From NCBI GenBank assembly GCA_903852325.1, contig CAINQO010000035.1, positions 34,117-98,116 on the forward strand: a stretch of DNA of 64,000 nt, written 5' to 3'. The notes under the pieces are model-generated. The model made no database searches. It worked only from the letters and a program-made list of their open reading frames with translations, and was not told the DNA's origin. Shown piece by piece: positions 14,598 through 56,203 of this stretch (positions are counted from its first letter, which is position 1; each line of letters opens with the position of its first letter). Position numbers and translations under genes: made by a program. Origin of the DNA: Candidatus Omnitrophota bacterium (GTDB taxonomy: Bacteria; Omnitrophota; Gorgyraeia; Gygaellales; Profunditerraquicolaceae).

Positions 14598-14628
14598 AAG
14601 GAAGGGCGGATTGAATCCCGCCCTTCCT
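14598..14628 (+). promoter_or_regulatory. Perfect 11-bp hairpin AAGGAAGGGCGG-ATTGAAT-CCGCCCTTCCT (SD-mimic/anti-SD), a short-loop variant of the repeated leader element
   Basis: Lies 6 nt after the lpxL-fusion stop and 32 nt before the ATG at 14661, whose own SD is AAGGAAGGGTTGGG. The motif AAGGAAGGGCGG(G)AT(T)GAA recurs at 53550. Confidence 0.5.
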
Positions 14629-14660
14629 CAGCGATTTAAGTTAGCAAAGGAAGGGTTGGG

Positions 14661-16754
14661 ATGAAGATTTTACAAATTTTGCCGGAACTTAATGTCGGAG
14701 GGGTAGAGACCGGGACGGTGGACCTTTCCCGTCATCTGGTGCGCCTGGGGCATAAATCGGTGGTGGTTTCCGCCGGCGGAGCGCTGGTCAAAGAACTGGA
14801 GGAGGCGGGGGCTAAACACTATCAACTGCCGGTAAATAAAAAATCCATCATCTCCATGATCAAGCTGGTTCCGGAGTTAGCCGAAATTATCAAACGGGAA
14901 GGGATCGAGATCGTACATGCCCGCTCAAGGGCGCCGGCCTGGATCGCTTATTTTGCCTGCCGAAGGACCCAGGCGGTATTCGTTACCACTTGCCACGGTT
15001 ATTACCAGAAACATCTTTTTAGCGCGGTAATGGGCTGGGGCAAAAAAGTGATCGTTTTAAGCAACGTGATCGCCCGGCACATGATCGAGGATTTTGCCGT
15101 TCCCCATGAGCGGATCAAGCTGGTGCCGCGCAGCGTGGATCTGGAGAAATTTAAATACCGGGACCCTAAAAACAAAAGGAAAGAAGATTTTAATGTCGGT
15201 ATCATCGGCCGGATCACCCCGCTAAAAGGGCATTTGCATTTTATCAAAGCCATGGCACGCATTTCCCGCTCCGTCCCGCGCCTGAAGATCTGGATCGTCG
15301 GCGATGCTCCGGCTTCCAAGGAAGCTTATAAAGAAGAACTGCAAATTTTAGTGCGCCGCCTGGGTTTATGGCATTGCACGGAATTTCTGGGCACGCAGCG
15401 GGATATTCCGGGAATATTGGAGAACCTGGATCTGGTGGTTTTAGCCACGACTACTCAGGAGGCCTTCGGCAGGGTGGTTGTAGAGGCGCAGGCCTGCGGG
15501 GTACCGGTGGTGGCGACCAGGGTCGGAGGGGTGATCGATATTATCGAGGACGGCAAGAACGGGCTCCTGGTCCCTCCGGCGGATTCCAAAAGCATGTCGG
15601 AGGCGGTGATGCGTATTTTTAAGGACGCGGAATTCGCCCGCATCCTGGCGGAAAATGCCTACGCTAAGGTCAAAGAAAAATATAATGTGGAATTGATGGT
15701 CAAAAATACTTTAGAGGTTTACCGGGAGGCGCTGAATAATTTTAAGATCCTGGTGATCAAGCTCAGTTCTTTAGGGGACGTGATCCTTTCTACGGCGGCC
15801 TTAAGGGCGATCCGGGAAAAATTTCCCCAAAGTAAATACAAGATAAGTTTTCTGGTCGGGGAAGAATCCAAGGACCTGCTTTTGCGCTGCCCGTATATCG
15901 ACGAACTTCTGGTTTGCGACTTAAAAAATAAGGACCGCGGCCCCTTCGGTTTGCTGAGGATGGGTCAGCTTTTACGGAAGAAAAATTTCGACTCGGTGAT
16001 CGATCTGCAAAATAGCCGTTCCAGCCACCTGCTGGCTTATCTGAGCGGTTGCGTCCACCGCTACGGATATGACAATAAAAAGTTTTCCTTTTTGCTCAAC
16101 TACCGGATCCAGGATCAAAAAACCCCGCTGGACCCGGTAACCCACCAGTTCAGGATCCTTAAGCTGCTGGGGATCGACCTGTTGAATAATGCCCTTGAGC
16201 TTTGGCCTTCCGCGGAAGACCGGGAGAAGGTGGAGGAACTTTTTAATTCCCAATGGTTGAGCCAGGTGCAGAAAGTGGTGGGGATCAATATCAGCGCTTC
16301 CTCCAGATGGGAGACAAAACTCTGGCCGCTGGAATACGTGATCACCCTGTGTGAAGAACTGGAAGCCAGGGATATCCGGGTGGTCATTACCGGTAAGCAA
16401 GAGGATCAGCCGCGCGCCAACATGCTCGTCGATTCGCTTAAGAACACCAAGGTGATCAATGCCTGCGGCAAGACCAATATCAACGAATTGGCGGTGTTGA
16501 TCAAAAAATGCAATGTGTTCATCTCCGCCGATTCTTCTCCTTTGCATATCGCTTCCGCGGTGGGCACTCCTTTTGTCGCTTTGTTCGGCCCGACGGATCC
16601 TTTGCGGCACCTTCCCCCCGGGGCTAATTACGCGGTGATCGATAAGAAATTGAATTGCAGCCCTTGTTATAAAAATAGATGCCGCAGTAAGCGCTGCATG
16701 ATCGAGATCGATCCGGCGCAGGTTTTTGAAGCGGTAATGAAGTTATTGAAATAA
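14661..16754 (+). CDS. Bifunctional LPS-core glycosyltransferase: GT4 (RfaG-like) N-domain fused to GT9 (heptosyltransferase-like) C-domain
   Basis: N-terminal half has the GT4 E-x7-E motif region EAFGRVVVEAQACGVPVVATRVGGVIDIIEDGKNGLLVPP. C-terminal half has the GT9 pattern ILVIKLSSLGDVILSTAALRAIREKFP...ISADSSPLHIASAVGTPFVALFGPTDP. 697 aa. Confidence 0.8.
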   Translation: MKILQILPELNVGGVETGTVDLSRHLVRLGHKSVVVSAGGALVKELEEAGAKHYQLPVNKKSIISMIKLVPELAEIIKREGIEIVHARSRAPAWIAYFACRRTQAVFVTTCHGYYQKHLFSAVMGWGKKVIVLSNVIARHMIEDFAVPHERIKLVPRSVDLEKFKYRDPKNKRKEDFNVGIIGRITPLKGHLHFIKAMARISRSVPRLKIWIVGDAPASKEAYKEELQILVRRLGLWHCTEFLGTQRDIPGILENLDLVVLATTTQEAFGRVVVEAQACGVPVVATRVGGVIDIIEDGKNGLLVPPADSKSMSEAVMRIFKDAEFARILAENAYAKVKEKYNVELMVKNTLEVYREALNNFKILVIKLSSLGDVILSTAALRAIREKFPQSKYKISFLVGEESKDLLLRCPYIDELLVCDLKNKDRGPFGLLRMGQLLRKKNFDSVIDLQNSRSSHLLAYLSGCVHRYGYDNKKFSFLLNYRIQDQKTPLDPVTHQFRILKLLGIDLLNNALELWPSAEDREKVEELFNSQWLSQVQKVVGINISASSRWETKLWPLEYVITLCEELEARDIRVVITGKQEDQPRANMLVDSLKNTKVINACGKTNINELAVLIKKCNVFISADSSPLHIASAVGTPFVALFGPTDPLRHLPPGANYAVIDKKLNCSPCYKNRCRSKRCMIEIDPAQVFEAVMKLLK

Positions 16755-16819
16755 GCAATATACCTGGCGCTTAGTGGTATTGCGCCAGTACGCGCCACGT
16801 GGCGCGAGGGGCGGGATGA

Positions 16820-16894
16820 CCCCGCACCATCTTCTAATTCACGCTTTAAGTCCTAAGGTTTAATAACAATTAACTATAAGGATGGTGCGGGGTG
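16820..16894 (+). promoter_or_regulatory. Leader element copy A (anti-SD arm CCCCGCACCATCTTCT paired with SD/start arm AAGGATGGTGCGGGGTG) upstream of the GT4 gene
   Basis: The 5' arm at 16820..16835 is complementary to 16878..16894, which holds the RBS and the GTG start at 16892. An AT insertion is matched in both arms. The CGCGCCACGTGGCGCG palindrome lies upstream. Confidence 0.6.
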
Positions 16895-17992
16895 CGGATT
16901 TTATTTTTAGCCAATCATCTTAATGTCGGGGGGATCTCCAGTTACTTGCTGACCTTGGGTAGCGGATTGAAAGAAAAAGGGCATGAGGTTTATTTGGCCT
17001 CCGGGGGCGGTGAATTAGAGGAAAAATTCCGGCAGGCCGGAATAATCCTGATCAATGTCCCCTTGAAAACAAAAAGCGAGATCAGTCCGAAGATCCTGAT
17101 CAGTTACTGGAAATTAAAAAAGGCCGCTGCCGGTTTGCGGATCGAGCTTATTCATTCGCACAGCCGGACCACCCAGGTTTTGGGATGCTGGCTGGGCCGC
17201 TCCCTGGGCAGGCCGCATATTTTTACCTGCCACGGTTTCTTTAAACCGAAACTGCCGCGCAAGGTTTTCGGCTGCTGGGGCCAAAGGGTAATTGCTATCA
17301 GCTCCCAGGTCAAAGAGCACTTGACCGCGGATTTTAAATTCAGCGAAAATAAGATTAGCGTGATCCATAACGGCATCGACACGCAAAAATTCGGGGATTT
17401 TTCGGGAAGGGACCGCTTGCGCAGCAGTTTAGGGGTCGCCCCGGATGGTTTTTTGATCGGGATCATCGCCCGCCTCTCCGATGTGAAGGGGCATCTTTAC
17501 CTTATCCGGGCGATGCCGGAGATTTTAAAAAAATTCCCCGGGACCAAATTAGCGATAATCGGTCAGGGTAAGACCGAAGGCTCTTTGGTCAAAGAAACAG
17601 GGAATTTAGGGTTAGAGGGCAATATTTTATTTGTCCCGGAAGCAAAAGATACCCGGGAATGGCTTTGCGCCATGGATGTTTTTGCCATGCCTTCGCTGCA
17701 GGAAGGCTTGGGGCTGGCTTTGATGGAAGCGATGGCTCAGGGTTTAGCCGTGGCCGGATCGGCGGTAGGGGGGATCAAAACCCTGGTCCAGGATAAAATT
17801 ACCGGACTGCTGGTCCCGGCGCGGGATGCGGGGGCGCTGGCGCAGGCGATCATCTCTTTGCTTGGGGATCCGGATTTACGCCGTAATTTAGGGGATCAGG
17901 CGCGCGAATTTATCGCCGCTAATTTTTCTAAAAAAGAAATGGTGGAAAAGACCGAAGGCCTTTACCGGCAGGTTTTAAATCCCAATGAGTGA
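16892..17992 (+). CDS. GT4-family glycosyltransferase (GTB fold)
   Basis: MRILFLANHLNVGGISSYLL... with E-x7-E region LQEGLGLALMEAMAQGLAVAGSAVGGIKTLVQDKITGLLVP. GTG start. 366 aa. Confidence 0.85.
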   Translation: MRILFLANHLNVGGISSYLLTLGSGLKEKGHEVYLASGGGELEEKFRQAGIILINVPLKTKSEISPKILISYWKLKKAAAGLRIELIHSHSRTTQVLGCWLGRSLGRPHIFTCHGFFKPKLPRKVFGCWGQRVIAISSQVKEHLTADFKFSENKISVIHNGIDTQKFGDFSGRDRLRSSLGVAPDGFLIGIIARLSDVKGHLYLIRAMPEILKKFPGTKLAIIGQGKTEGSLVKETGNLGLEGNILFVPEAKDTREWLCAMDVFAMPSLQEGLGLALMEAMAQGLAVAGSAVGGIKTLVQDKITGLLVPARDAGALAQAIISLLGDPDLRRNLGDQAREFIAANFSKKEMVEKTEGLYRQVLNPNE

Positions 17993-21315: not shown

Positions 21316-22245
21316 ATGATCAACTTAAAGAAGGTTAAAAGATATTCGCTTAAAGCCCGTTTAAGCAAGGTAAATAAGGGGGATTTTGCCCTTAAACCGG
21401 CTAAAGGCAGGAGTTTTTCCGTTTTTTTTGACTCCTTACCTAATATTTTAAAAGCCAAAGATTTACGCTCGGTTTCTGCCGATATTATCGCGGCGCGCCG
21501 GAAAAATAAAGGGGTGATTTTAATGGCCGGGGCCCACGTGATCAAGTGCGGGCTTAATCCGGTTTTGATCGAGTTGTTGGAAAAAAAAGTGATTACCTGT
21601 ATCTGCCTTAACGGGGCCGGATTGATCCACGATTTTGAGATCGCCTACCAGGGGAAGACTTCGGAAGATGTGGCCGCCAACCTCAAAGACGGGAAATTCG
21701 GGATGGGGATCGAGACCGCGGATTTTATCAACGCCGCGGTCAAAGAAGGGACTGAGGCGGGCTTTGGATTAGGTTATGCCTTAGCCAATAAAATGGCCGG
21801 GGCAGCTTTACCCAATAAAGATCTAAGCCTGATTTATAATGCCTATAAGCGTAAAATCCCGGTTTGTGTTTTTGCGGCGATCGGTACGGATATAATCCAT
21901 CAGCACCCTTCTTTCGACGCTGCGGCAACCGCCGTGGGCTCATTGCGGGATTTCCATATCCTGGTGGAGAGGATCCGCTCCTTGAATCAGGGGGGAGTGG
22001 TTTTAAATTTCGGCTCCGCGGTGCTTTTGCCTGAAGTATTTTTAAAGGCTTTGAACCTTGCCCGCAACCTGGGCAGCAAAGTGAAAGATTTTACTTCCGC
22101 TAATTTCGATATGATTTACCAGTACCGCGCGGCACAGAATGTAGTGAGCCGTCCCACCGCTTCCGGGGGTAAAGGCTATTATATTATCGGTCACCATGAG
22201 ATCATGCTGCCGCTTTTAGCCCAAAGTATATTGGAAAAAATCTGA
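21316..22245 (+). CDS. Deoxyhypusine synthase (DHS)-like NAD-binding family protein, function unknown, embedded in the LPS/heptose locus
   Basis: Three blocks follow the DHS pattern. AGAHVIKCGLNPVLIELLEKKVITCICLNGAGLIHDFE matches SN.ISSG.RE.I..L.....VDV.VTTAGGVEED. IPVCVFAAIGTDIIHQH matches IPVF.PA.TDGS.GD. LNQGGVVLNFGS matches GGGVVKHH. Start moved from the track's 21277 to the internal ATG at 21316 because 21277 overlaps the putative -35 box. Confidence 0.5.
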   Translation: MINLKKVKRYSLKARLSKVNKGDFALKPAKGRSFSVFFDSLPNILKAKDLRSVSADIIAARRKNKGVILMAGAHVIKCGLNPVLIELLEKKVITCICLNGAGLIHDFEIAYQGKTSEDVAANLKDGKFGMGIETADFINAAVKEGTEAGFGLGYALANKMAGAALPNKDLSLIYNAYKRKIPVCVFAAIGTDIIHQHPSFDAAATAVGSLRDFHILVERIRSLNQGGVVLNFGSAVLLPEVFLKALNLARNLGSKVKDFTSANFDMIYQYRAAQNVVSRPTASGGKGYYIIGHHEIMLPLLAQSILEKI

Positions 22246-22246
22246 C

Positions 22247-22317
22247 CCCGCACCTTCTTCGTATTCGATCTGAAGGTCAGGGGTAAAAAATAGTTAATAA
22301 TAGGAAGGTGCGGGGTG
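22247..22317 (+). promoter_or_regulatory. Leader element copy B (CCCCGCACCTTCTTC ... AGGAAGGTGCGGGGTG) upstream of hldE
   Basis: The 5' arm starts 2 nt after the upstream stop. An internal GAAGGTCAGGGG can alternatively pair with the anti-SD. The 3' arm supplies the SD and GTG start (22315). Confidence 0.6.
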
Positions 22318-23328
22318 AAGAACCTAAAAGAGATTGTCCGCAAATTCAAGCGGGCTAATATTTTGGTCGTCGGAGACCTGATCCTGGATGAATACATCTG
22401 GGGCGCGGTGGAGAGGATCTCTCCGGAGGCTCCCGTGCCGGTGCTTTGGGCCAACAAACGTACTTTTGTTCCCGGGGGCACCGCTAACGTGGCCAATAAC
22501 ATCGGCTCCTTCGGGGCAAAAGTGACTCTTTTGGGGGTCACCGGTTCCGACGCGAACTCCAAGATTTTGCTGGGCGAATTAAAGAAGAGAAAGATCGATA
22601 CGCGGGGTATTTTTGTCGAAAAAAATCGGCACACTACGGTCAAGACGCGGATCCTGGCCGGGCATCAGCAGGTAGTCCGGGTGGATTGGGAACATACCCA
22701 TGATCTGTCTCAAGAGTTAAACGATAAGATTTTAAAATTCATCCAGAAGAATATCGATGATTTCGACGCGATCATTATCGAGGATTACGGCAAAGGGGTA
22801 ATCAATGTCCCGCTCTTGAAAACGCTGATCGCTTTGGCGAAAAACCATAAAAAAATCATTACCGTTGATCCGAAAGAGGAGAACTTTCAGTTTTATCGGT
22901 CGGTAGATTCGATCACTCCTAACCGCAAGGAGCTGGAAAACGCGATAAGGAATTTGAAGATCCAGGACACGACCAACGGTTTCAAGATCAATACGGATAA
23001 ACTCTTTACGGATAAGGATGTGGACCGGGCTGCCCGGGAGATCCTGGAATACCTGCGTCTTGATTCTATTCTGGTTACCCTGGGGGAGCACGGGATGAAA
23101 CTTTTGGAAAAGAACGGCCGCCTTACCCATATTCCCACGGTAGCCCAGGAAGTTTTCGATGTTTCCGGCGCGGGGGATACCGTAATCAGCACCTTTACCC
23201 TGGCTTTAAGCGTGGGCGCTTCCAAATTAGAGGCGGCGCACATCGCCAATTTTGCCGCAGGGATAGTGGTAGGTAAATTGGGCACGGCAGTGACCAACAC
23301 TAAAGAACTATTAGAAAGGATTAAATAA
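22315..23328 (+). CDS. hldE: D-glycero-beta-D-manno-heptose 7-phosphate kinase (HldE domain I / RfaE1, PfkB family); no fused adenylyltransferase domain
   Basis: ILVVGDLILDEYIWGAVERISPEAPVPVL and the C-terminal DVSGAGDTV ribokinase motif. 337 aa, GTG start. Confidence 0.85.
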   Translation: MKNLKEIVRKFKRANILVVGDLILDEYIWGAVERISPEAPVPVLWANKRTFVPGGTANVANNIGSFGAKVTLLGVTGSDANSKILLGELKKRKIDTRGIFVEKNRHTTVKTRILAGHQQVVRVDWEHTHDLSQELNDKILKFIQKNIDDFDAIIIEDYGKGVINVPLLKTLIALAKNHKKIITVDPKEENFQFYRSVDSITPNRKELENAIRNLKIQDTTNGFKINTDKLFTDKDVDRAAREILEYLRLDSILVTLGEHGMKLLEKNGRLTHIPTVAQEVFDVSGAGDTVISTFTLALSVGASKLEAAHIANFAAGIVVGKLGTAVTNTKELLERIK

Positions 23329-24881: not shown

Positions 24882-24899
24882 ACTTTAATAAGGTGCGGG

Positions 24900-25868
24900 A
24901 TGAGTATTGATTTGATCAAACGGGCAAAAGAAGTTTTGGAAATCGAAGCGCAGGCAGTGCGCCGGTTAAAGGGGTGCCTGGATAAAGGTTTTATTAAAGC
25001 GGTTGAGCTGATCCTGAAGAGCAAGGGCAGGGTAGTGGTTAGCGGAATGGGCAAGACCGGAATTATCGCCCAAAAATTTTCCGCGACTCTTGCTTCGACC
25101 GGGACCCCCAGTTTATTCCTGCATACCGCCGAAGCTATTCACGGGGATTTAGGCAAGGTTACCGCGGATGATGTGGTGATCATCCTTTCTAACAGCGGTT
25201 CGACCGAGGAGATGAAACAGCTTTTGCCGATCCTCAAAAAGATCGGCGCTCCGATCATTTCTTTGACCGGCAACACCAAATCCATTCTGGCCAAATACAG
25301 CGATGTGGTCCTGGATGTCTCCGTGAAAAAAGAGGCCTGTCCGTTAGGTTTGGCCCCCACGGCTTCCACTACCGCGGCTTTGGCGATGGCCGATGCCCTG
25401 GCGGTCTGCCTGCTGGAACGTAAGGGGTTTAAAGAAAAGGATTTTGCATTTTTCCATCCTGGGGGCACTTTAGGCAAGCGCCTGCTTTTGAGCGTCGCGG
25501 ATATCATGCGCCAGGGGCAGTCTAATGCCATTGTCCGCGAGGATAAATTGGTGGCGGAAGTTTTGTTGGCGATTACCCGGGCCCGGGCCGGCAGCGCTAT
25601 TGTGGTGGATAAGCAGGGAAAACTGAAGGGGATATTCACCGACGGAGACCTGCGCCGGCATTTAGCCACCGACAAGTATTTACCGCAGCGGCCGATCAAA
25701 GAAGTAATGACCAAAAACCCCACGGTAGTGAGCAAAGATATGCTGGCGGCAGAGGCGATGCGGATATTACAGGCCAGGAAGATCGATGAAGTCCCGGTGG
25801 TGGATAAATTCAGGCGCCCGGTGGGCTTATTGGATGTCCAGGACCTGCTTAAAGCCGGATTAATTTAA
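24900..25868 (+). CDS. kdsD: Arabinose-5-phosphate isomerase (SIS plus tandem CBS)
   Basis: SIS motif VVVSGMGKTGIIAQKFSATLASTGTPS plus C-terminal CBS pair. 322 aa. SD AAGGTGCGGG precedes the ATG. Confidence 0.9.
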   Translation: MSIDLIKRAKEVLEIEAQAVRRLKGCLDKGFIKAVELILKSKGRVVVSGMGKTGIIAQKFSATLASTGTPSLFLHTAEAIHGDLGKVTADDVVIILSNSGSTEEMKQLLPILKKIGAPIISLTGNTKSILAKYSDVVLDVSVKKEACPLGLAPTASTTAALAMADALAVCLLERKGFKEKDFAFFHPGGTLGKRLLLSVADIMRQGQSNAIVREDKLVAEVLLAITRARAGSAIVVDKQGKLKGIFTDGDLRRHLATDKYLPQRPIKEVMTKNPTVVSKDMLAAEAMRILQARKIDEVPVVDKFRRPVGLLDVQDLLKAGLI

Positions 25869-27403: not shown

Positions 27404-28106
27404 GGGCCTGGCTAAATCCTATGACGGTCGCTGGGTGGTTAAGGGCGTGGATATCACGGTCAAGCGCGGGGAGATCGTCGGGCTTTTAGGCCCCAACGGA
27501 GCCGGCAAGACTACTACTTTTTATATGATCGTCGGGATCGTCCCCCCCAACAAGGGCACGATCGTTTTTGATAACCATGAAATCACCCGGATGGCGATCC
27601 ACGAGCGGGCGCGTTTCGGGATCGGCTATCTTGCCCAGGAACCCTCGATATTCCGGAAACTGACCGTGGAAGAAAATATCAACGCGATCCTGGAGACTTT
27701 GCCTTTGAGCCGCGCGCAGAGAAAAAACCGGCTGGCGTTTTTGCTGGAGGAGTTGAATATCGCGCACCTGGCAAAGCATAAAGCCTACACTTTAAGCGGC
27801 GGAGAGAGAAGGCGCCTGGAGATCACCCGGGCGCTGGTGACCAATCCTTCTTTTATCCTGCTGGATGAACCTTTCAGCGGGATCGACCCGATCGTCGTCA
27901 ATGAAGCGCAGGAGATCATTAAGGAATTAAAGGCCAAAGGCCTGGGTATTCTTTTGACCGACCATAATGTGCGGGAGACCCTGGCGATCACCGACCGGGC
28001 GTATTTAATTTCCGAAGGGGCGATCCTTATTTCCGGATCCGCGGAGGAGCTGATTAATCACCCTCAGGCCCGCCAGGTTTATTTAGGTGAGAAGTTTAGG
28101 ATGTAA
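27384..28106 (+). CDS. lptB: LPS export ABC transporter ATP-binding protein
   Basis: Walker [12 protein letters not shown], signature [11 protein letters not shown], Walker B ILLDEP. 240 aa. Confidence 0.9.
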
Positions 28107-28248
28107 CCCCGCACCTTCTTCTGTATTCGGAAGAAAAACGGATTGATTAAAGGCGCGGGACAATAATAACCATGGTCATTTCTTTAAACATCAAGGTTCA
28201 AAGCTTAGATGCAGGGAATGATATAATTAAGAAAGAAGGTGCGGGGTG
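28107..28248 (+). promoter_or_regulatory. Leader element copy C (CCCCGCACCTTCTTC ... AAGAAGGTGCGGGGTG) upstream of tig, with a 25-codon uORF
   Basis: The 5' arm begins at the first nt after the lptB TAA. The uORF at 28173..28250 ends with TGA overlapping the tig GTG (GGTGA). Confidence 0.6.
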
Positions 28249-29133
28249 AAAACCGAAGTTAAGAAATTAGACGGAACTAAACGTGAAATTAATGTCGCCG
28301 TGACCGGCGACTTGGTCAAAAATAAATTTGAAGAAGTTTTCGCACAGGTCGCCAAAGAAGCCAAGGTCCCGGGTTTTCGCCCGGGAAAAGCGCCCCGGGA
28401 TCTTCTGGAAAAGCATTACGGTTCCAGCGTCCATGAGCAGGTGTTAAAGGAGCTGGTCCCGGATGTGTATAACCAGGCGGTCGCGGCGGAAAAACTCGAT
28501 GTCATTGAGCTGCCCCAGATCACCGATGTGCAGCTGGATCGGGCCAGCCTTTCTTTTAAAGCGGTCGTGGAGGTCAGCCCGGAAATTACGCTGAAGAATT
28601 ATAAAAACCAGGTAATTAATTATAAGCTGCCGGTTGTTTCCGCGGATGAAGTGAAACGCCAGATCGACTCGGTCAAGGAATCGCGTAAGGCCGAAAACCT
28701 GGATGATAAATTCGCCCGCTCCCTGGGTTATCCTGATTTAGGGGAATTGGAAAAAGCGGTGGAAAGACAGATCTTTCTTACCAAGGAGAATCAGGAACGC
28801 CAGCGGATTGAAAATGAATTAATCGAAAATATTACCAAAGGGGTGGAATTTAAGCTGCCGCAAGGATTGGTGGACCGGCAGGTTCAGGATATGCTGCGGC
28901 AGACCAAGATCGATTTGGCGATGAAAGGGCTGCCCCGGGAGAAGATCGACGCGCAGGATAAATTGCTTTTAGAGGGGATCGAACCGGAAGCAAAAAAGCA
29001 GGTCAAGATTTACCTGATCCTGGCGCAGATCGCGAAAAAAGAGAATATCGCCATCGACGACCATATGCCGCGCAAGGTGATGGAGTTTCTGCTGGGTGAA
29101 GCAGAGTGGAAGGCTGCACAAGAGAATAAATAG
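28246..29133 (+). CDS. tig: Trigger factor lacking the central FKBP/PPIase domain
   Basis: N-terminal ribosome-binding domain (MKTEVKKLDGTKREINVAV..., GFRPGKAP signature) joined directly to the C-terminal chaperone arm. 295 aa versus about 430 typical. GTG start. Confidence 0.8.
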   Translation: MKTEVKKLDGTKREINVAVTGDLVKNKFEEVFAQVAKEAKVPGFRPGKAPRDLLEKHYGSSVHEQVLKELVPDVYNQAVAAEKLDVIELPQITDVQLDRASLSFKAVVEVSPEITLKNYKNQVINYKLPVVSADEVKRQIDSVKESRKAENLDDKFARSLGYPDLGELEKAVERQIFLTKENQERQRIENELIENITKGVEFKLPQGLVDRQVQDMLRQTKIDLAMKGLPREKIDAQDKLLLEGIEPEAKKQVKIYLILAQIAKKENIAIDDHMPRKVMEFLLGEAEWKAAQENK

Positions 29134-29152: not shown

Positions 29153-29260
29153 CTCCGCGCCTAAGCCTTGGATGTTACGCTTAGCATATATTCGAATATT
29201 GTAACGCGCGGAGTAAATTAAAAATTACCACTTATTATAAATAATTTTAAATTTAAGGAG
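29153..29260 (+). promoter_or_regulatory. Conserved structured element upstream of clpP (copy 1 of 2; second copy upstream of queH)
   Basis: 8-bp stem CTCCGCGC/GCGCGGAG enclosing CTAAGCCT..GTTACG..ATATATTCGAATATTGTAAC, then GTAAATTAAAAATTACCACTTATTATAAATAATTTT and the clpP RBS. Confidence 0.6.
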
Positions 29261-29936: not shown

Positions 29937-31076
29937 ATGAAGAAAGAGTACTTATTGACCCCGGGTCCTACCCCTTTACCGCCGCAGGTCAGCCTGGCCA
30001 TGGCCAAACCGATCATTCATCATCGCACTCCGCAGTTCCAGGAGATCCTGAAGGAGGCCAGCGCCGGATTAAAATGGGCTTTCCAGACGGCTAACGACGT
30101 TTTTATTATTTCTGCATCGGGTACCGGAGCGATGGAAGCGGCGGTGGTCAATCTGCTTTCCTGCGGGGATGCCGCGTTAGTAGTCCAGGGCGGTAAATTC
30201 GGCGAAAGATGGACGGAGCTTTGCAAGGCTTACGGGATCAAGGCTGAGGTTGTTGACGTGGAATGGGGCAAAGCGGTCAGCCCGGAGGAGATTGCTAAAA
30301 GATTGAAAGCCAATCCGCAGATCAAGGCGGTATTTGCCACTTTATGCGAAACTTCCACCGGCGTGGACAATGATATCCAGGCGATTGCCGCCGTGGTCAA
30401 GCAGACTCCGGCAGTTTTAGCGGTGGACGCGATCAGCGGCCTGGGAGCGGTCGATCTTAAAACCGATGCCTGGGGGGTGGATGTGGTAGTGGCCGGTTCG
30501 CAGAAAGGCCTGATGCTTCCTCCGGGGCTAGGGTTTATTTCTTTAAGCGCCAAGGCCTGGAAATTGGTCGAGGAGTCCAAAACCGGCCGGTATTACCTTG
30601 ATTTGAGAAAAGCGAAAAAAGCCCTGGATAAAAATGATACGCCGTTTACTTCCGGGATCACCTTGATCATCGCTTTAAATGAAGCTTTAAAATTAATGCA
30701 GGCCGACGGCCTGGAAAACATATTTAAGCGCCACCGGGTAATGGCGGATGCCACCCGCGCCGCGGTTAAGGCTTTGGGGATGGAGCTGTTTGCCCCCACC
30801 GCTGCTTCTGACGGGGTTACCGCGGCTAAGGTGCCTGCCGGCCTTGACGGGGAAAAATTGGTCAAGACTATGCGGGATACTTACGGGGTAACCATTGCCG
30901 GCGGACAGGAAGAGCTTAAGGGCAAAGTCATCCGCATCGCGCATATGGGTTATATCGCCGAATCTGATATTATTTTAGGGATAACCTGCCTGGAAAAAGT
31001 CCTGGCCCAGATGGGCTATAAATTCAACTTAGGGGCAGGGGTCAAGGCAGCGGAAGAGGTATTTTTGAAGGGCTAA
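29937..31076 (+). CDS. Class V aminotransferase (AGXT/SPT family), probable phosphoserine aminotransferase
   Basis: LLTPGPTPLPPQV...ISASGTGAMEAAVVNLL...GSQKGLMLPPGLGF (PLP-Lys context). Directly upstream of serA. 379 aa. Confidence 0.75.
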   Translation: MKKEYLLTPGPTPLPPQVSLAMAKPIIHHRTPQFQEILKEASAGLKWAFQTANDVFIISASGTGAMEAAVVNLLSCGDAALVVQGGKFGERWTELCKAYGIKAEVVDVEWGKAVSPEEIAKRLKANPQIKAVFATLCETSTGVDNDIQAIAAVVKQTPAVLAVDAISGLGAVDLKTDAWGVDVVVAGSQKGLMLPPGLGFISLSAKAWKLVEESKTGRYYLDLRKAKKALDKNDTPFTSGITLIIALNEALKLMQADGLENIFKRHRVMADATRAAVKALGMELFAPTAASDGVTAAKVPAGLDGEKLVKTMRDTYGVTIAGGQEELKGKVIRIAHMGYIAESDIILGITCLEKVLAQMGYKFNLGAGVKAAEEVFLKG

Positions 31077-31091: not shown

Positions 31092-31219
31092 AAATCCTAG
31101 GCACTAAATCCTAAACTCTAAACAAACTCAAAAAATTTAAACTCAAAACCCGAAACATGGGTTTGGAGTTTTGGATTTTGGATTTGTTTAGGATTTAGAG
31201 TTTAGTGTTTAGAGTTTAG
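31092..31219. repeat. Long imperfect hairpin built from inverted heptamer tandem repeats (CTAAAYN x3 ... NGTTTAG x4) between serC and serA
   Basis: The left arm CTAAATC CTAAACT CTAAACA AACTCAAAA...AAACCC and loop GAAACAT precede the right arm GGGTTTGGAGTTTTGGATTTTGGATTTGTTTAG GATTTAG AGTTTAG TGTTTAG AGTTTAG. The arms are A/C-rich versus G/T-rich. Confidence 0.5.
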
Positions 31220-31240
31220 AATAATAATGAGGGGTGAGAG

Positions 31241-32827
31241 ATGATCAAAGTTTTAGTCAGTGATGCGTTAAGCCAGGAAGGGCTCAAAATATTCAATGAT
31301 TGCAAAGAGCTTACCGTAGATGTCAAGACGGATTTAAAACCCGATGCGCTCAAAGAAATCATCAAGGATTATGACGCTTTGGTGGTCCGCAGTGCGACCA
31401 AGGTGACCAAGGAAATAATCCAGGCCGCCGAAAAACTAAAAGTGATCGGCCGGGCCGGAGTAGGTTTGGATAATGTGGATCTGGAAGCGGCGACCGCCAA
31501 AGGGATCATCGTTATGAACACCCCGGCGGGAAACACGATCTCTACCGCCGAACATACCTTCAGCATGATCCTGACCTTATCCCGGAATATCGCCCAGGCA
31601 AACGCCTCGATGAAGAAGGGGGAATGGAAACGTTCCAAATTCATGGGGGTGGAATTATACAATAAGGTTTTGGGGATCGTTGGGTTCGGCCGGATCGGTT
31701 CGGAGGTGGCTAAGCGCGCGCTTTCATTCGGAATGAAGGTGTTGGCGTATGACCCGTTTTTATCTGCCCAGGTTGCCGAGAGCATCGGGGTGGAGATTGC
31801 CGAATTGAAGAAGGTACTGCAGGAATCCGACTATATTACCGTGCACACTCCTTTAACCGAAGAAACCAGGCACATGATTTCGGATAAAGAATTCGCTTTA
31901 ATGAAAAAGAATGTGCGCATCGTCAATTGCGCCCGCGGCGGGATCATCGACGAACTGGCTTTAGTCAAAGCGGTTAAAGAAGGTAAGGTTTCCGGAGCGG
32001 CGATGGATGTTTTTGAAAATGAACCGCTGGCCGCCGACAGTGAACTTTTGAAGCTGGATAACGTGATTACTACTCCGCATCTAGGGGCTTCTACCGAAGA
32101 GGCGCAGATCAATGTCGCCATCGAAGTGGCGGAGATCGTGCGCGACGCGCTCCTGGGCCGGGGGATCCGTAACGCCGCCAATTATCCCTGCTTAGAAGCG
32201 GAGGTGTGCAAGATCCTTAATCCCTACATTAACCTGGCGGAAAAACTGGGGATGTTCAGCGCCCAGCTGGTTGAGGGCCGGTTCCAGGAATTAGTGATCA
32301 ACTATAGCGGACAGATCACTAAGTATGATTTAAGTTCGGTAACCATGGCCCTGGCCAAAGGACTGCTTACCCCGATATTAAAAGAGACGGTTAATTTCGT
32401 TAACGGCATCTCTTTGCTCAAAGAAAGAGGGATAAAGCTGCGCGAATCGAAATCCGCGGAAGAAGGAGAGTTCGTTAATCTTATTCAGTTGGAAATTAAG
32501 ACCGACAAAGAAAGCAAATCGGTTTGCGGGACCCTTTCCAGCAATAAGCAGCCCCGTATCGTAAAAATCGACGATTATTACCTGGAATTATACCCGATCG
32601 GAGAAATGGTGTTTATCCGGAATTGGGATAAGCCGGGACTGATCGGAAGCCTGGGGACATTCATGGGTAAGAACGGGATCAATATCGCCGCAATGACCTT
32701 CGGCCGGGATAAACCGGGCGGAAAGGCGATCAGCGTGTTGAACGTGGATAGCCTGGTCAGCCAGGAGATCCTGGACAAGATCAGGGAATTGGAAAATATC
32801 CTCACTGCTAAAATAATCCGGACGTGA
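31241..32827 (+). CDS. serA: D-3-phosphoglycerate dehydrogenase (long form with ASB and ACT domains)
   Basis: NAD-binding GIVGFGRIGSEVAKRA, catalytic ...CARGGIIDE...HLGASTEEAQ, C-terminal ACT domain. 528 aa. Confidence 0.9.
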   Translation: MIKVLVSDALSQEGLKIFNDCKELTVDVKTDLKPDALKEIIKDYDALVVRSATKVTKEIIQAAEKLKVIGRAGVGLDNVDLEAATAKGIIVMNTPAGNTISTAEHTFSMILTLSRNIAQANASMKKGEWKRSKFMGVELYNKVLGIVGFGRIGSEVAKRALSFGMKVLAYDPFLSAQVAESIGVEIAELKKVLQESDYITVHTPLTEETRHMISDKEFALMKKNVRIVNCARGGIIDELALVKAVKEGKVSGAAMDVFENEPLAADSELLKLDNVITTPHLGASTEEAQINVAIEVAEIVRDALLGRGIRNAANYPCLEAEVCKILNPYINLAEKLGMFSAQLVEGRFQELVINYSGQITKYDLSSVTMALAKGLLTPILKETVNFVNGISLLKERGIKLRESKSAEEGEFVNLIQLEIKTDKESKSVCGTLSSNKQPRIVKIDDYYLELYPIGEMVFIRNWDKPGLIGSLGTFMGKNGINIAAMTFGRDKPGGKAISVLNVDSLVSQEILDKIRELENILTAKIIRT

Positions 32828-35852: not shown

Positions 35853-37198
<1,346 letters not shown>

Positions 37199-42492: not shown

Positions 42493-43674
42493 ATGAATCC
42501 TGCTCCAAAAAATATTGCGGTTTTAGGTTCCAGCGGCTCTATCGGTCAAAGTACTTTGGAAGTGGTCAGGGGCCTGCCGCGTGAATTTAAAATTGTCGCC
42601 CTAAGCGTTAATTCCGATATTGTCCGGTTAGAACAACAGATCAGGGAATTTAGGCCGAAATTAGTCTGTGTCGGGGATCCCCGGCAAGCGGTAAAATTAA
42701 GCGCCCGGACCGGTCCAGGGGTAAAAGTTCTTTGCGGAAAATCCGGCCTGGAAGAATTGGCGCAGCATAAAGATATTCAACAGGTGATGGTGGCGATTAC
42801 CGGCGCAAATGCTTTAGCTCCGTTAATCAGCGCGATCAAAAGCGGCAAAGAAGTGGCTTTGGCTAACAAAGAAGCGCTGGTGATGGCCGGCTCGCTGGTG
42901 ATGCGTTTAGCCAGCCGGCATAAAGTTTTGATCCGTCCGGTAGATAGCGAACAGTCGGCGATCTGGCAGAGCCTGGGCGATAGCGGGGCGGAAAATATCA
43001 GGAAGATATACCTGACCGCTTCCGGCGGGCCGCTTCGGACCTGGCCGGCAAGTAAGTTTAAGCGGGTGTCGGTGGAAGAAGTATTGCGCCATCCGCGTTG
43101 GAAAATGGGCAGGAAGATCACGGTAGACTCGGCAACCTTGATGAATAAAGGGCTGGAGCTGCTGGAAGCGATGTTCCTGTTCGGCCTGGGGGAGGATAAA
43201 ATAAAAGTATTGGTCCACCCGGAAGCGTTGATCCATTCCATGGTCGAATTTAAGGATGGGGTGACCATGGCGCAGCTTTCCGTCACGGATATGCGCGTGC
43301 CTATCCAGTACGCCTTGACCTATCCCCGGCGCCTGCCGAATACGATCAGGGGAATAGATTTTTACCGTTTGCATAAACTGCATTTTGCCAAACCTGATCT
43401 ACAAAAGTTTCCCTGCCTGGCGCTGGCTTACCAGGCTGCCCGGCAGTTAGGCACCGTGCCGGCGGTTTTAAATGCCGCCAATGAAGCCTGCGTAGAGATG
43501 TTCCTTGAGCGCAAGATCGGTTTCTTAAGTATCGCCGGGATCGTGGAGAAAGTGATGCGCCGCCATACCAGGATTTCTTCTCCGGGATTGCGGGAAATAA
43601 TGGATGCCGATAGCTGGGCCAGGGAGGAAGTTTTGCGCATCGCCGCCGGCTCAAAAACTATGAGGGTTTTATAA
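42493..43674 (+). CDS. dxr: 1-deoxy-D-xylulose 5-phosphate reductoisomerase
   Basis: IAVLGSSGSIGQSTLEV, LANKEALV, HPRWKMG. 393 aa. Confidence 0.95.
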   Translation: MNPAPKNIAVLGSSGSIGQSTLEVVRGLPREFKIVALSVNSDIVRLEQQIREFRPKLVCVGDPRQAVKLSARTGPGVKVLCGKSGLEELAQHKDIQQVMVAITGANALAPLISAIKSGKEVALANKEALVMAGSLVMRLASRHKVLIRPVDSEQSAIWQSLGDSGAENIRKIYLTASGGPLRTWPASKFKRVSVEEVLRHPRWKMGRKITVDSATLMNKGLELLEAMFLFGLGEDKIKVLVHPEALIHSMVEFKDGVTMAQLSVTDMRVPIQYALTYPRRLPNTIRGIDFYRLHKLHFAKPDLQKFPCLALAYQAARQLGTVPAVLNAANEACVEMFLERKIGFLSIAGIVEKVMRRHTRISSPGLREIMDADSWAREEVLRIAAGSKTMRVL

Positions 43675-53550: not shown

Positions 53551-53719
53551 AGGAAGGGCGGGATGAACCCTGCATTTTCTTGTTATTCAATATTAAAGTC
53601 TTAGGAATTTGATGATTAAACAGAAGGAAGGTGCGGGGGTGAATCCCGCTCCTTCTAATTGTTCAATGCTAAAACCCATACGTTTTAAAGAATTCAATAA
53701 GAAAGAAGGAGCGGGATGA
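53550..53719 (+). promoter_or_regulatory. Tandem (degenerate plus intact) leader element copies E1/E2 upstream of scpA, each with a uORF
   Basis: Pseudo-start AAGGAAGGGCGGGATGAA (53550..53567), then uORF1 MNPAFSCYSILKS (53563..53604). Second pseudo-start AGAAGGAAGGTGCGGGGGTGAA, anti-SD TCCCGCTCCTTCT (53644..53656) and uORF2 MNPAPSNCSMLKPIRFKEFNKKEGAG (53639..53719). Real SD AGAAGGAGCGGGA (53704..53716), exactly complementary to the anti-SD with two compensatory changes relative to the consensus. Confidence 0.6.
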
Positions 53720-55544: not shown

Positions 55545-55645
55545 GCGTCGAACTAAGCCTATAGGTTACGGTTTATATATATTCGAATATTGAAACGTTC
55601 GACGTAAATTAAAAATTACCACTGATTATAAACAATTTTTAATTT
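55545..55645 (+). promoter_or_regulatory. Conserved structured element upstream of queH (copy 2 of 2)
   Basis: 8-bp stem CGTCGAAC/GTTCGACG (different sequence from copy 1 at equivalent positions) enclosing TAAGCCT..GGTTACG..ATATATTCGAATATTGAAAC, then GTAAATTAAAAATTACCACTGATTATAAACAATTTTT. Confidence 0.6.
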
Positions 55646-56203
55646 ATGGATATTCTGTTGCACATCTGCTGCGGGCCTTGTTTGATTTATCCTTTCGGCA
55701 AATTAAAAGAAAAAGGATTTAATATCCGGGGTTATTACTATAATCCCAATCTCTATCCGCAGGATGAATATCTTCGCCGCGTTGAGGCGCTGCAGCTCTT
55801 ATGCCGGGAATTTTCGCTGGAGGTCGCCTATCCCGGGCACAACCCTGAGGATTTTTCCCGGACAGTTAAATCCCTGGAAGATCCTTTGGCAAAACAGCGC
55901 TGCGTTTTATGCTGGTCATTGCGTTTGCGTAAGACCGCCCAGGCGGCCAGGGAAGCCGGCGTAAAAACGTTCAGCACTACTTTATTGGTCAGCCCGTACC
56001 AGGATCATGACGCGTTGCGCCGTTTAGGCACTCAGATCGCCCGGGAAACCGGCGTAGATTTTTATTATGAAGATTTCCGCCCCGGGTTTAAATGGGCGCA
56101 GCAGGAAGCGAAAGATAAAGGTATTTACCGGCAAAAATATTGCGGCTGCGAATATTCCATGGTGAAAACAAAACCGGCCGCACCGGTCCAGGCAAAAAAA
56201 TGA
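55646..56203 (+). CDS. queH: Epoxyqueuosine reductase QueH (DUF208)
   Basis: HICCGPC...YNPN...C..C Cys motifs of the QueH family. 185 aa. Confidence 0.85.
   Translation: MDILLHICCGPCLIYPFGKLKEKGFNIRGYYYNPNLYPQDEYLRRVEALQLLCREFSLEVAYPGHNPEDFSRTVKSLEDPLAKQRCVLCWSLRLRKTAQAAREAGVKTFSTTLLVSPYQDHDALRRLGTQIARETGVDFYYEDFRPGFKWAQQEAKDKGIYRQKYCGCEYSMVKTKPAAPVQAKK

Follow-up and report, generated by a model that had tools for sequence, protein, structure and literature searches.

The spacer at positions 16755-16894 of a 64,000-nt stretch of a Candidatus Omnitrophota genome (hereafter the window, which refers to the whole stretch) separates a 697-amino-acid (aa) gene combining glycosyltransferase families 4 and 9 (GT4+GT9; stop codon TAA at 16752-16754) from a 366-aa GT4 gene on the + strand (16892..17992). 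The latter begins with a GTG start, and its N-terminus, VRILFLAN, aligns with MNILFIAN of its orthologs. The spacer contains a palindromic element, copy A (16816-16895, + strand), which extends into the start of the GT4 gene. A preliminary description of this DNA, made from the letters alone, had presented copy A as one copy of a repeated hairpin leader with arms kept complementary, and this is what we find.

In the minimum-free-energy fold, the copy A stem comprises 15 pairs, joining 16819-16833 with 16879-16893. The 5' arm ACCCCGCACCAUCUU (16819..16833, +) is anti-Shine-Dalgarno-like, while the 3' arm AAGGAUGGUGCGGGGU (16879..16893, +) includes, besides a Shine-Dalgarno sequence (AAGGA / GGUG), the GU of the GUG start; the 5' arm was delimited by the fold, the arm pairing and a covariance model. 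Within the arms, ACCCCGCACCATC (16819-16831) and GATGGTGCGGGGT (16881-16893) are 100% complementary, so that the pairing claimed earlier holds as a predicted 15-bp stem. The fold of 16810-16900 has a predicted energy of -29.7 kcal/mol (z = -2.8), and none of 200 shuffles (0/200) folded as well. The loop (16834..16878, +), as defined by the fold, the alignment and the covariance model, carries the family motifs AUUCA and UUUAAG..AAGGUUUAA, the latter forming an inner hairpin. Six independent assemblies of this organism carry the same 166-nt copy A region without a single difference, which excludes an assembly artefact and means that they hold no polymorphism information.

Copy A also contains a short upstream open reading frame (uORF), MTPHHLLIHALSPKV* (16816..16863, +), which opens with the left-border ATG, spans the entire 5' arm and ends with a TAA within the loop, 28 nt before the GTG. 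The left border of copy A reads ATGA-C, one A fewer than the consensus ATGAAC, and the uORF is therefore out of frame with respect to the usual MNPAPS reading of the family, a difference in frame that had already been pointed out. The flanks of copy A have diverged (TGAC / TGCG). Just before the ATG lies a G-rich, Shine-Dalgarno-like stretch, AGGGGCGGG (16807..16815, +; read from the sequence), similar to a decayed 3' arm (AAGGTGCGGG); with position 16806 included, it reads GAGGGGCGGG (16806-16815) and gives the uORF a G-rich Shine-Dalgarno-like sequence of its own. In related loci fetched for comparison (L numbers), the same position holds GGGAAAGGTGCGGTG-ATGAAT (L005) or AAAAGGTGAAGG-GTGAAT (L121).

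The preliminary description had further claimed that both arms of copy A carry matched AT insertions. Copy A was aligned, first by MAFFT and then by a covariance model, to 93 other copies, and no gap was needed in either arm. At pair 17/82 of this alignment (A1), the 93 copies have U:A and copy A alone has A:U. The 5' arm reads CCCCGCACC[A]UCU in copy A versus CCCCGCACC[U]UCU, and the 3' arm GGA[U]GG versus AGA[A]GG. The two bases of the flipped pair are A16829 and U16883 (T16883 in the DNA), both on the + strand, where the consensus and the L121 ortholog have U and A, respectively. L121 is the closest available relative (GT4 protein 71% identical, neighbouring proteins 81-94%), and its orthologous copy reads CACCTTCTTCT...AAGGAAGGTG, as compared to CACCATCTTCT...AAGGATGGTG in the window. 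Copy A and the other copies do not differ in how far the arm lies from the conserved loop motif AUUC. Given the gap-free alignment and the comparison with L121, the change in copy A is, by alignment, a flip rather than an insertion, namely one substitution per arm that turns U:A into A:U and retains the pair. The claim that a change in one arm is mirrored in the other thus stands, whereas the insertions do not, and copy A, with its one compensated base pair, is an ordinary family member rather than a special leader that gained paired insertions.

The family to which copy A belongs is well represented. The arm motif CCCCGCACC occurs eight times in the window versus 0.9 expected, and six full copies (A-F) and one decayed copy of an ~80-nt palindromic element were identified there. 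A two-arm pattern scan, using one genome per species, found more than 114 stretches among the matches listed, nearly all in metagenome-assembled genomes (MAGs) of Candidatus Omnitrophota, with several per MAG. The counts over 108 copies given below refer to those pattern matches listed (~125) in which an RTG follows the 3' arm. The 81-nt consensus is ATGAAC-CCCGCACCTTCT-AAATATTCAACTATTAAAGCCATAGGGTTTAATAAATTAAATAAGAA-AGAAGGTGCGGG-GTGA. Lengths range from 66 to 148 nt (mode 81), and the sole open reading frame (ORF) is the uORF, of at most 29 codons. The arms form terminal inverted repeats of 14-15 nt that are 96-100% complementary, and all window copies fold with the same closing stem (z of -2.8 to -5.4), the predicted hairpin energies of folded element segments being -25 to -48 kcal/mol. 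The stem is often extended by a second helix, UAUUCAA/UUGAAUA, and some loop motifs (AUUCAA, UUAAAG..GGUUUAA) are conserved across the family. Rfam gave no match at gathering thresholds for the whole window, or at E <= 10 for 16700-16950, and a literature search by taxon, concept and sequences found no description of the element.

The other window copies, all on the + strand, lie before functionally diverse genes. A decayed, short copy (14609..14668; covariance model 26 bits, E = 8e-4) precedes the 697-aa GT4+GT9 gene itself, and its stem, UCCCG-CCCUUCC/GGAAGGGUUGGGA, is retained through compensatory changes. Copy B (22243..22319) lies before a PfkB-family kinase gene, at a junction that is also filled in the L067 ortholog, and copy C (28104..28250), which has a 112-nt loop, before the trigger factor gene (tig); the upstream stop, TGA and TAA, respectively, adjoins the 5' arm in both. 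Copy D (35853..35933), before purA, has an 81-nt uORF whose terminal TGA overlaps the GTG start. Copy E (53563..53641) is in tandem with copy F (53639..53719), which lies before scpA, carries the two compensated pairs UCCCGCUCC/GGAGCGGGA, and has a uORF whose TGA overlaps the ATG start. In addition, a solo 3' arm, AATAAGGTGCGGG-ATG (24887..24902), provides the Shine-Dalgarno sequence and start of ORF 24900, a SIS/CBS-domain gene, and a solo 5' arm relic, ATGAATCCTGCTCC (42493..42506), is fused in frame as the first residues, MNPAP, of Dxr.

Across the family, the arms coincide with the signals for translation initiation. The 3' arm, AAGAAGGUGCGGGR, followed by UG, places a Shine-Dalgarno sequence at normal spacing and contributes the first base of the start codon, and the 5' arm, being the complement of a Shine-Dalgarno sequence, resembles the 3' end of 16S rRNA (the anti-Shine-Dalgarno sequence). 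An RTG with an ORF (median 247 codons) follows in 108 of the ~125 pattern matches listed. The start is GTG with a C:G closing pair and ATG with U:A, and the closing pairs number 67 C:G, 28 U:A, 6 U.G and 6 C.A. The genes downstream, which in the window encode GT4, PfkB kinase, trigger factor, PurA and ScpA, comprise 128 Pfam families among 100 proteins, and such functionally unrelated genes argue against a regulon-specific riboswitch or operator. As side observations, every gene-like ORF across the window (1-64000) is on the + strand, and element-bearing window genes use GTG starts far more often than other genes.

The left border has a start codon as well. An NTG is found six bases before CCCGC in 87/108 copies, mostly as ATGAAC or ATGAAT. 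In 84 copies, an ORF of 80 codons or more terminates close by on the upstream side, with its stop inside the ATGA in 33 and within 11 nt in 64. At the right border, R-TGA is present in 98/108 copies, and the uORF that starts at the left NTG ends at the UGA overlapping the new start in 44/108. The length is a multiple of three in 68/108 copies (p = 5e-10), and when the modal 81 nt is left out, in 38/78 (p = 0.003). Of the 68 in-frame copies, 46 have no stop in the loop when it is read in the uORF frame, as compared to 8 and 4 for the other two frames. The uORF peptide is poorly conserved, with entropies of 1.08, 1.00 and 1.20 for the three codon positions of the loop, in agreement with the earlier statement that the nucleotide motif, not the peptide, is conserved at this locus. 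The feature that is kept thus seems to be the open frame rather than the peptide. An arrest peptide (WFN..UGA, a motif and stop reminiscent of TnaC) was rejected as the principal explanation given the nearly flat codon-position entropy and a W that is not conserved. Within the loop, a degenerate version of the right arm (AAGGTGYGGGG) is often seen ahead of ATGAATAAG (e.g., L002:2617-2700, L043:7575-7658, L101:1683-1766 and L108:2809-2894). This internal copy offers an alternative pairing partner for the left arm and, together with ATGAATAAG, gives a mini-ORF, MNKKEGAG*, which ends at the same overlapping TGA.

Pairing was assessed on 22 copies that had not been chosen by the exact arm pattern. 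In this set, 96.4% of the cells are paired and 5 of 14 pairs have changed on both sides; none of 500 shuffles (0/500) reached the score, and no slid register came close. Among the window copies, compensated pairs number two in copy F, at least two in the decayed copy at 14609, and one in copy A. One G.U pair is found in copy D, and three C-to-U changes in the 5' arm of copy E retain pairing as G.U, which is possible only in the + strand transcript. The pair changes in the window favour pairing in the sense RNA.

The element also behaves as an insertion. The same 4-mer is present on both flanks in 80/108 copies and TGAA on both sides in 72/108, while rare flank variants shared by both sides occur in 8 copies (TGAG in four, TGGA in three and TGCG in one) versus 0.74 expected (0/20000 permutations). 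We compared six orthologous junctions, with the orthology of the flanking genes taken from tblastn identities and called-gene tables. The copy-A junction, from the 697-aa gene (GT697) to GT4, is empty in L122 (CTAAA-ATGAAC-ATACTT, with the upstream stop inside the ATGA) and in L124, holds a solo 3' arm in L123 (TGA-GCAGGAAGGTGCGGGA-GTGAAC), and is filled in L121, L005, L075, L084 and the window, as well as in L063, where four tandem copies are found. The preceding junction, from a 667-aa gene to GT697, is empty in L063, L122 and L123 (ATT-ATGAAT-ATATTACAA), filled in L084 (ATT-ATGAAT[CCCGC...GCGGGG]TGAAT-ATACTG), L075, L005 and L121, and holds the decayed copy in the window. Between kdsA and the next gene, L067 is empty, the window has the solo 3' arm (24887-24902), and L068 and L099 are filled; the L067 sequence here, 'ATGAGAATGAAT', is footprint-like, with both flank copies kept. 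The junction from an lptB-like gene to tig is empty in L067 and filled in the window (copy C), the junction before dxr holds a relic in the window and is filled in L101, and the junction 1573 to 2656 is empty in the window and filled in L098. Many of the empty sites are ATGA overlaps, junctions that would already be coupled.

The dxr junction illustrates how such an element can leave a trace in a protein. The window dxr begins with ATGAATCCTGCTCC-AAAAAAT, translated as MNPAPKNIAVLGSSGSIG, while its L101 ortholog begins with VKKIAVLGSSGSIG after a full element. The L101 Dxr starts with VKKIAVLG, and the Pfam Dxr domain of the window protein begins at residue 8; a deletion has evidently fused the left arm in frame to the window dxr. 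Copies within one genome can also be closely alike: the copies at two neighbouring junctions match exactly over 74 nt in L121 and are ~92% identical in L005, whereas orthologous copies elsewhere differ. Tandem arrays (window E/F, L017 and L063) share a TGAA between units. In the L063 array (L063:1465-1749, minus strand), the first two of the four tandem copies are decayed and the last two are nearly identical.

Transposable elements of the miniature inverted-repeat type (MITEs) are recognized in bacteria by inverted repeats at their termini, direct repeats on their flanks, sites found both empty and filled, and an RNA fold that is stable (PMC3184786). Of five MITE features considered, four were found for the present element, namely small size (under ~300 bp) without a transposase ORF, terminal inverted repeats, flanking direct repeats, and empty and filled orthologous sites. 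We estimate a probability of roughly 65% that copy A is a member of an ~80-nt, palindromic, MITE-like family at start codons that is widespread in Candidatus Omnitrophota and is tolerated because it preserves translational coupling. Comparison shows that the element sits on the TGAA of a start-codon context (A|TGAA), with TGAA on both sides. The right arm supplies a Shine-Dalgarno sequence and, with the right TGAA, creates a new RUG start. In the mRNA, the arms form a predicted GC-rich hairpin of 14-15 bp that buries both the Shine-Dalgarno sequence and the start, while the former start stays at the left border, often overlapping the upstream stop (ATGA), and opens the short uORF, whose reading frame enters or crosses the hairpin. 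A lone hairpin of such stability would be expected to silence initiation. Ribosomes arriving from the upstream gene or from the uORF could unfold it, and initiation could then follow, either by reinitiation at the overlapping RUGA or by exposure of the site to new 30S subunits. RNA unfolding and reinitiation are the two accepted models of translational coupling (PMC12548453). The sequence features expected of a coupling hairpin are present, in that the Shine-Dalgarno sequence and the start fall within the 3' arm, and the 5' arm lies inside the uORF or adjoins the upstream stop. If the element indeed keeps the coupling that it interrupts, this would account for the survival of insertions before housekeeping genes. 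Since its uORF crosses the 5' arm and stops in the loop, copy A would use the unfolding route rather than the overlap route.

Several points lower our confidence in this explanation and should be considered. We found no transposase or autonomous partner with the same terminal repeats, as the orphan arms in ~0.9 Mb of fetched loci flank ordinary genes, and we infer mobility from comparison alone. Instead of a target duplication, the TGAA repeats could represent the core at which a site-specific recombinase crosses over, and a 4-nt target by itself does not explain the near-exclusive location at start codons. The coupling step is likewise deduced from sequence, and ~60% of the copies, copy A included, have no uORF that reaches an overlapping UGA. 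As for the pairing, template-switch mutation at a quasipalindrome could yield mirrored changes with no selection on RNA pairing, and the surplus of G.U relative to A.C mismatches is confounded with the constraint that the Shine-Dalgarno sequence puts on the 3' arm. Two candidates for a mobile relative were considered and discarded. The orphan arms of L050, 2.3 kb apart, were taken as a possible autonomous element; they enclose ordinary, housekeeping-type ORFs on the other strand, which to judge by eye rather than by a scan are MnmE/FolC-like, and no transposase. A resemblance to IS5 was dropped, as the IS5 terminal repeat (GGAAGGTGCG) is of opposite polarity to the element end.

A broader version of the coupling explanation is that of a phylum-wide, self-rescuing mobile palindrome that specifically targets start codons and has been co-opted as a general module, making about one in ten gene junctions in Omnitrophota strictly dependent on upstream translation through a relay uORF. 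Here, the one in ten is extrapolated from ~7 copies at ~60 junctions in the window. We regard this version as tentative, and would put its chances at somewhat below even.

Among other explanations, the one that survives best is that of purely selfish palindromic DNA, in which the arms are kept as terminal inverted repeats for mobility and as the right-arm Shine-Dalgarno sequence, with the hairpin and uORF merely tolerated and playing no role in translation. The TGAA flanks, the empty and filled sites, the tandem arrays and the identical copies at two loci of one genome all agree with it, as do the equal frequency of the terminal-pair mismatches U.G and C.A (6 vs 6), the weak peptide signal in the loop, and the uORF that is short or absent in many copies. 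What such an explanation does not account for is the excess 3-periodicity of length and the avoidance of stops in the uORF frame, or the lineage-specific compensated pairs in old orthologous copies (copy A versus L121, copy F and 14609-14668). Moreover, a predicted hairpin of -25 to -48 kcal/mol on the starts of purA, tig and scpA should inhibit strongly unless it is opened (PMC12548453). We therefore consider purely selfish DNA to be unlikely, though it retains a real share of the probability.

An RNA processing or stability element, with the stem serving as an RNase III-type substrate or a decay barrier and cleavage separating the cistrons and freeing the ribosome-binding site, appears improbable. 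The perfect, GC-rich stem of 14-15 bp, often extended by the UAUUCAA/UUGAAUA helix, and the location between cistrons of operons fit this idea, and RNase III processing has reportedly been observed for the Correia elements of Neisseria. A typical RNase III substrate is ~20 bp or longer, however, and the present stem is shorter unless the imperfect inner helices are counted. Moreover, the left-border start codon, the RUGA overlap and the frame statistics are left unexplained.

Still less can be said for a dedicated regulatory RNA with a regulon, be it a thermometer, a riboswitch or an operator for a protein or small RNA, or for its variant, a conserved arrest peptide. Sequestration of the Shine-Dalgarno sequence and start, the conserved loop motifs (AUUCAA, UUAAAG..GGUUUAA) and the uORF frame that avoids stops could be read in this manner. 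Yet the functions downstream are unrelated (the 128 Pfam families), loops differ wholly between orthologous sites (e.g., copy B versus L067), Rfam has no match, and the predicted stem is too stable to melt at physiological temperatures; for the peptide variant, codon-position entropy is nearly flat and the W is often R or G. We accordingly assign this explanation a very small chance. Finally, a gene-specific structured leader with matched AT insertions, preceded by palindromes acting as a terminator or processing site, is hardly tenable: the arms do pair with a mirrored change and palindromes do lie just past the stop codon, but the alignment has one pair flip and no indel, and the palindromes, which have no T-run and no called terminator, belong to a separate repeat that is missing at the same junction in L121, L005, L075, L084 and L063.

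The proposed coupling element can be compared to several known systems. Bacterial MITEs, such as Correia of Neisseria and Nezha of cyanobacteria (PMC3184786), are alike in being shorter than 200 bp, lacking a transposase gene and occurring in many copies per genome, with terminal inverted repeats around a variable core, short flanking direct repeats, empty and filled orthologous sites, and a long, stable RNA stem-loop. The Omnitrophota element differs in that the fetched loci (~0.9 Mb) yielded no related insertion sequence sharing its terminal repeats, in that its flank is a non-palindromic TGAA, almost always in a start-codon context, and in that its terminal repeat is a Shine-Dalgarno sequence on the right and the complement on the left, which restores both start codon and ribosome-binding site to the interrupted gene and turns the old start into that of a uORF. 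REP/REPIN-RAYT systems, whose palindromes measure 20-40 nt, share a conserved 5' tetranucleotide and go with a RAYT gene, have a different architecture, the arms of the present element being ~45 nt apart and its site being on start codons.

The REP2 repeats of Neisseria and the IR repeats of Borrelia carry a promoter and a site for ribosome binding, along with an ATG (Delihas 2011, PMC3184786). They resemble the Omnitrophota element in being multi-copy, in lying immediately upstream of ORFs, to which they supply the ribosome-binding site and initiation codon, and in having internal stem-loops (PMC3184786). REP2, however, lacks terminal inverted repeats, does not sequester its ribosome-binding site, contains a promoter, and precedes genes that are co-regulated, whereas the Omnitrophota element lies mostly inside operons, adjoins upstream stops, and showed no promoter-like site in a scan of 16500-17100. 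Rickettsia palindromic elements (RPEs; Ogata 2000, cited in PMC3184786) are similarly palindromic, with an open frame, lengths biased to multiples of three, and relics in proteins. RPEs, however, insert within coding sequences and are translated in the protein, whereas the Omnitrophota element separates frames, its stop overlapping the new start, except in deletion relics.

Closest in function would be coupling hairpins, such as those of phage f1 genes VII/IX and of MS2 coat-lysis (PMC12548453), where the downstream Shine-Dalgarno sequence and start pair with a sequence translated upstream, and where NUGA-type overlaps of stop and start occur. Known coupling hairpins are each specific to one gene pair, whereas the Omnitrophota element would be one portable module at many unrelated junctions. 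E. coli rpmI-rplT is a further example of a coupling hairpin. For the combination of Shine-Dalgarno/complement terminal repeats, a start-codon site, a rebuilt start and a relay uORF, which we deduce from the sequences, no description was found in the literature.

If the coupling explanation is true, it would show that a transposable palindrome can enter the start codon, the most sensitive position of a gene, without killing that gene, since the terminal repeat of the element brings a ribosome-binding site and the insertion leaves a relay uORF. Such an element would also represent a natural, portable cassette for translational coupling at many unrelated junctions, in an uncultured phylum with small, dense genomes. 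Gene calling in Omnitrophota MAGs is affected by GTG starts made by the element, by relic N-termini (such as MNPAP on Dxr) and by leaders that are repeats, and the family provides a simple marker for tracking Omnitrophota genome dynamics.

The 46 nt just upstream of copy A are, by sequence comparison, a copy of a second, unrelated, covarying double-hairpin repeat (family 2). Hairpin 1 (16761..16790, +) has the stem UA(C)CUGGCGC / GCGCCAGUA and the loop UUAGUGGUAUU, and contains the CTGGCGC-N11-GCGCCAG reported earlier (16764-16770 / 16782-16788). Hairpin 2 (16791..16806, +) is the perfect 16-mer palindrome CGCGCCACGTGGCGCG, also reported earlier. These palindromes begin 7-10 nt after the TAA at 16752-16754 and thus lie directly past the stop of the GT4-GT9 gene, as had been described. 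The suggestion that they act as a terminator fared less well: a scan of 16500-17100 gave no promoter-like or terminator-like site at the hairpins, and the stems of the main hairpin and of the upstream palindromes are followed by GTGCGG or AGGGG and not by a T-run. Three perfect 16-mer palindromes are found in the window versus ~1.6 expected, which is unremarkable in itself; the 16-mer is credible because it is homologous to hairpin 2 of family 2 elsewhere, where this position holds a variable, short GC hairpin, e.g., TGCGCCCTGTGGCGCA (L123) or GCCCTTGTGGGC. The 62 nt upstream of copy A had also been considered as a decayed tandem copy of the main element; this was rejected, as the last 9-10 nt alone resemble the 3' arm and the rest is family 2.

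The family 2 consensus is CACCCsGCGC-UUAUUGGAAUU-GCGCsGGGUG, followed by a short, variable GC hairpin, AAGGAGG, and an ATG ~25 nt downstream. In a metagenome scan for the loop pattern, ~21 of 123 matches (120 stretches listed) reach the full motif, and the rest are due to chance. Family 2 occurs twice in L123 (L123:4090-4170), at a junction where L121, L122 and the window have an ATGA overlap, and other copies are at L028:6564-6623, L017:5588-5660 and L068:3899-3958, and in L156, L158, L159, L175, L191, L213, L230 and others. For hairpin 1, 97.3% of the cells are paired, and none of 500 shuffles (0/500) reached the score; pair 10/30 is GC in 13, CG in 10, AU in 2 and UA in 1, and another pair is CG in 19 and UA in 7. 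The window copy differs from the commonest form on both sides of two pairs. Searches of Rfam for family 2 gave no family, with chance-level hits only. Three members lie directly upstream of 5' ends that look like those of tRNA genes (by eye, with no tRNA scan), and several lie 5-12 nt past -10-like boxes with TTGACA-like -35 boxes; some are in tandem arrays. These positions suggest a 5'-terminal leader or stabiliser hairpin, or a REP-like element. REP/BIME-type palindromes are alike in being GC-rich hairpin units of 30-35 nt that are sometimes in tandem and are insertion-polymorphic in intergenic DNA, whereas family 2 has a conserved 11-nt loop, UUAUUGGAAUU, and a fixed site, ~25 nt upstream of starts or directly upstream of putative tRNA genes.

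Some further repeats were noted along the way. At the junction of the lptB-like gene and tig, which is occupied by copy C in the window and measures 14 nt in L067, a 314-nt insert is present in L068 (L068:3682-3995), with a reversed family 2 hairpin and other GC-rich hairpins. An 86-nt repeat, 85% identical between its two window copies (29174-29259 and 55565-55650), lies upstream of clpP and of a QueH-family gene; it contains a 12-nt palindrome, ATATTCGAATAT, flanked by GTTAC/GTAAC, and then an AT-rich stretch, and may serve both genes as a common operator or promoter. Long, imperfect inverted repeats (42 nt, 76% complementary) with short units of the CTAAA/TTTAG type occupy 31092-31222, between ORF 29937..31076 and ORF 31241..32827. 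At 1017-1054, a hairpin with 16-nt arms, CCGGGTAAGGGTGGGA/TCCTATCCTTACCCGG, is followed by TATTTT and resembles an intrinsic terminator. In L017, the hairpin in the orthologous spacer is also terminator-like but not the same, and two copies of the palindromic element come after it.

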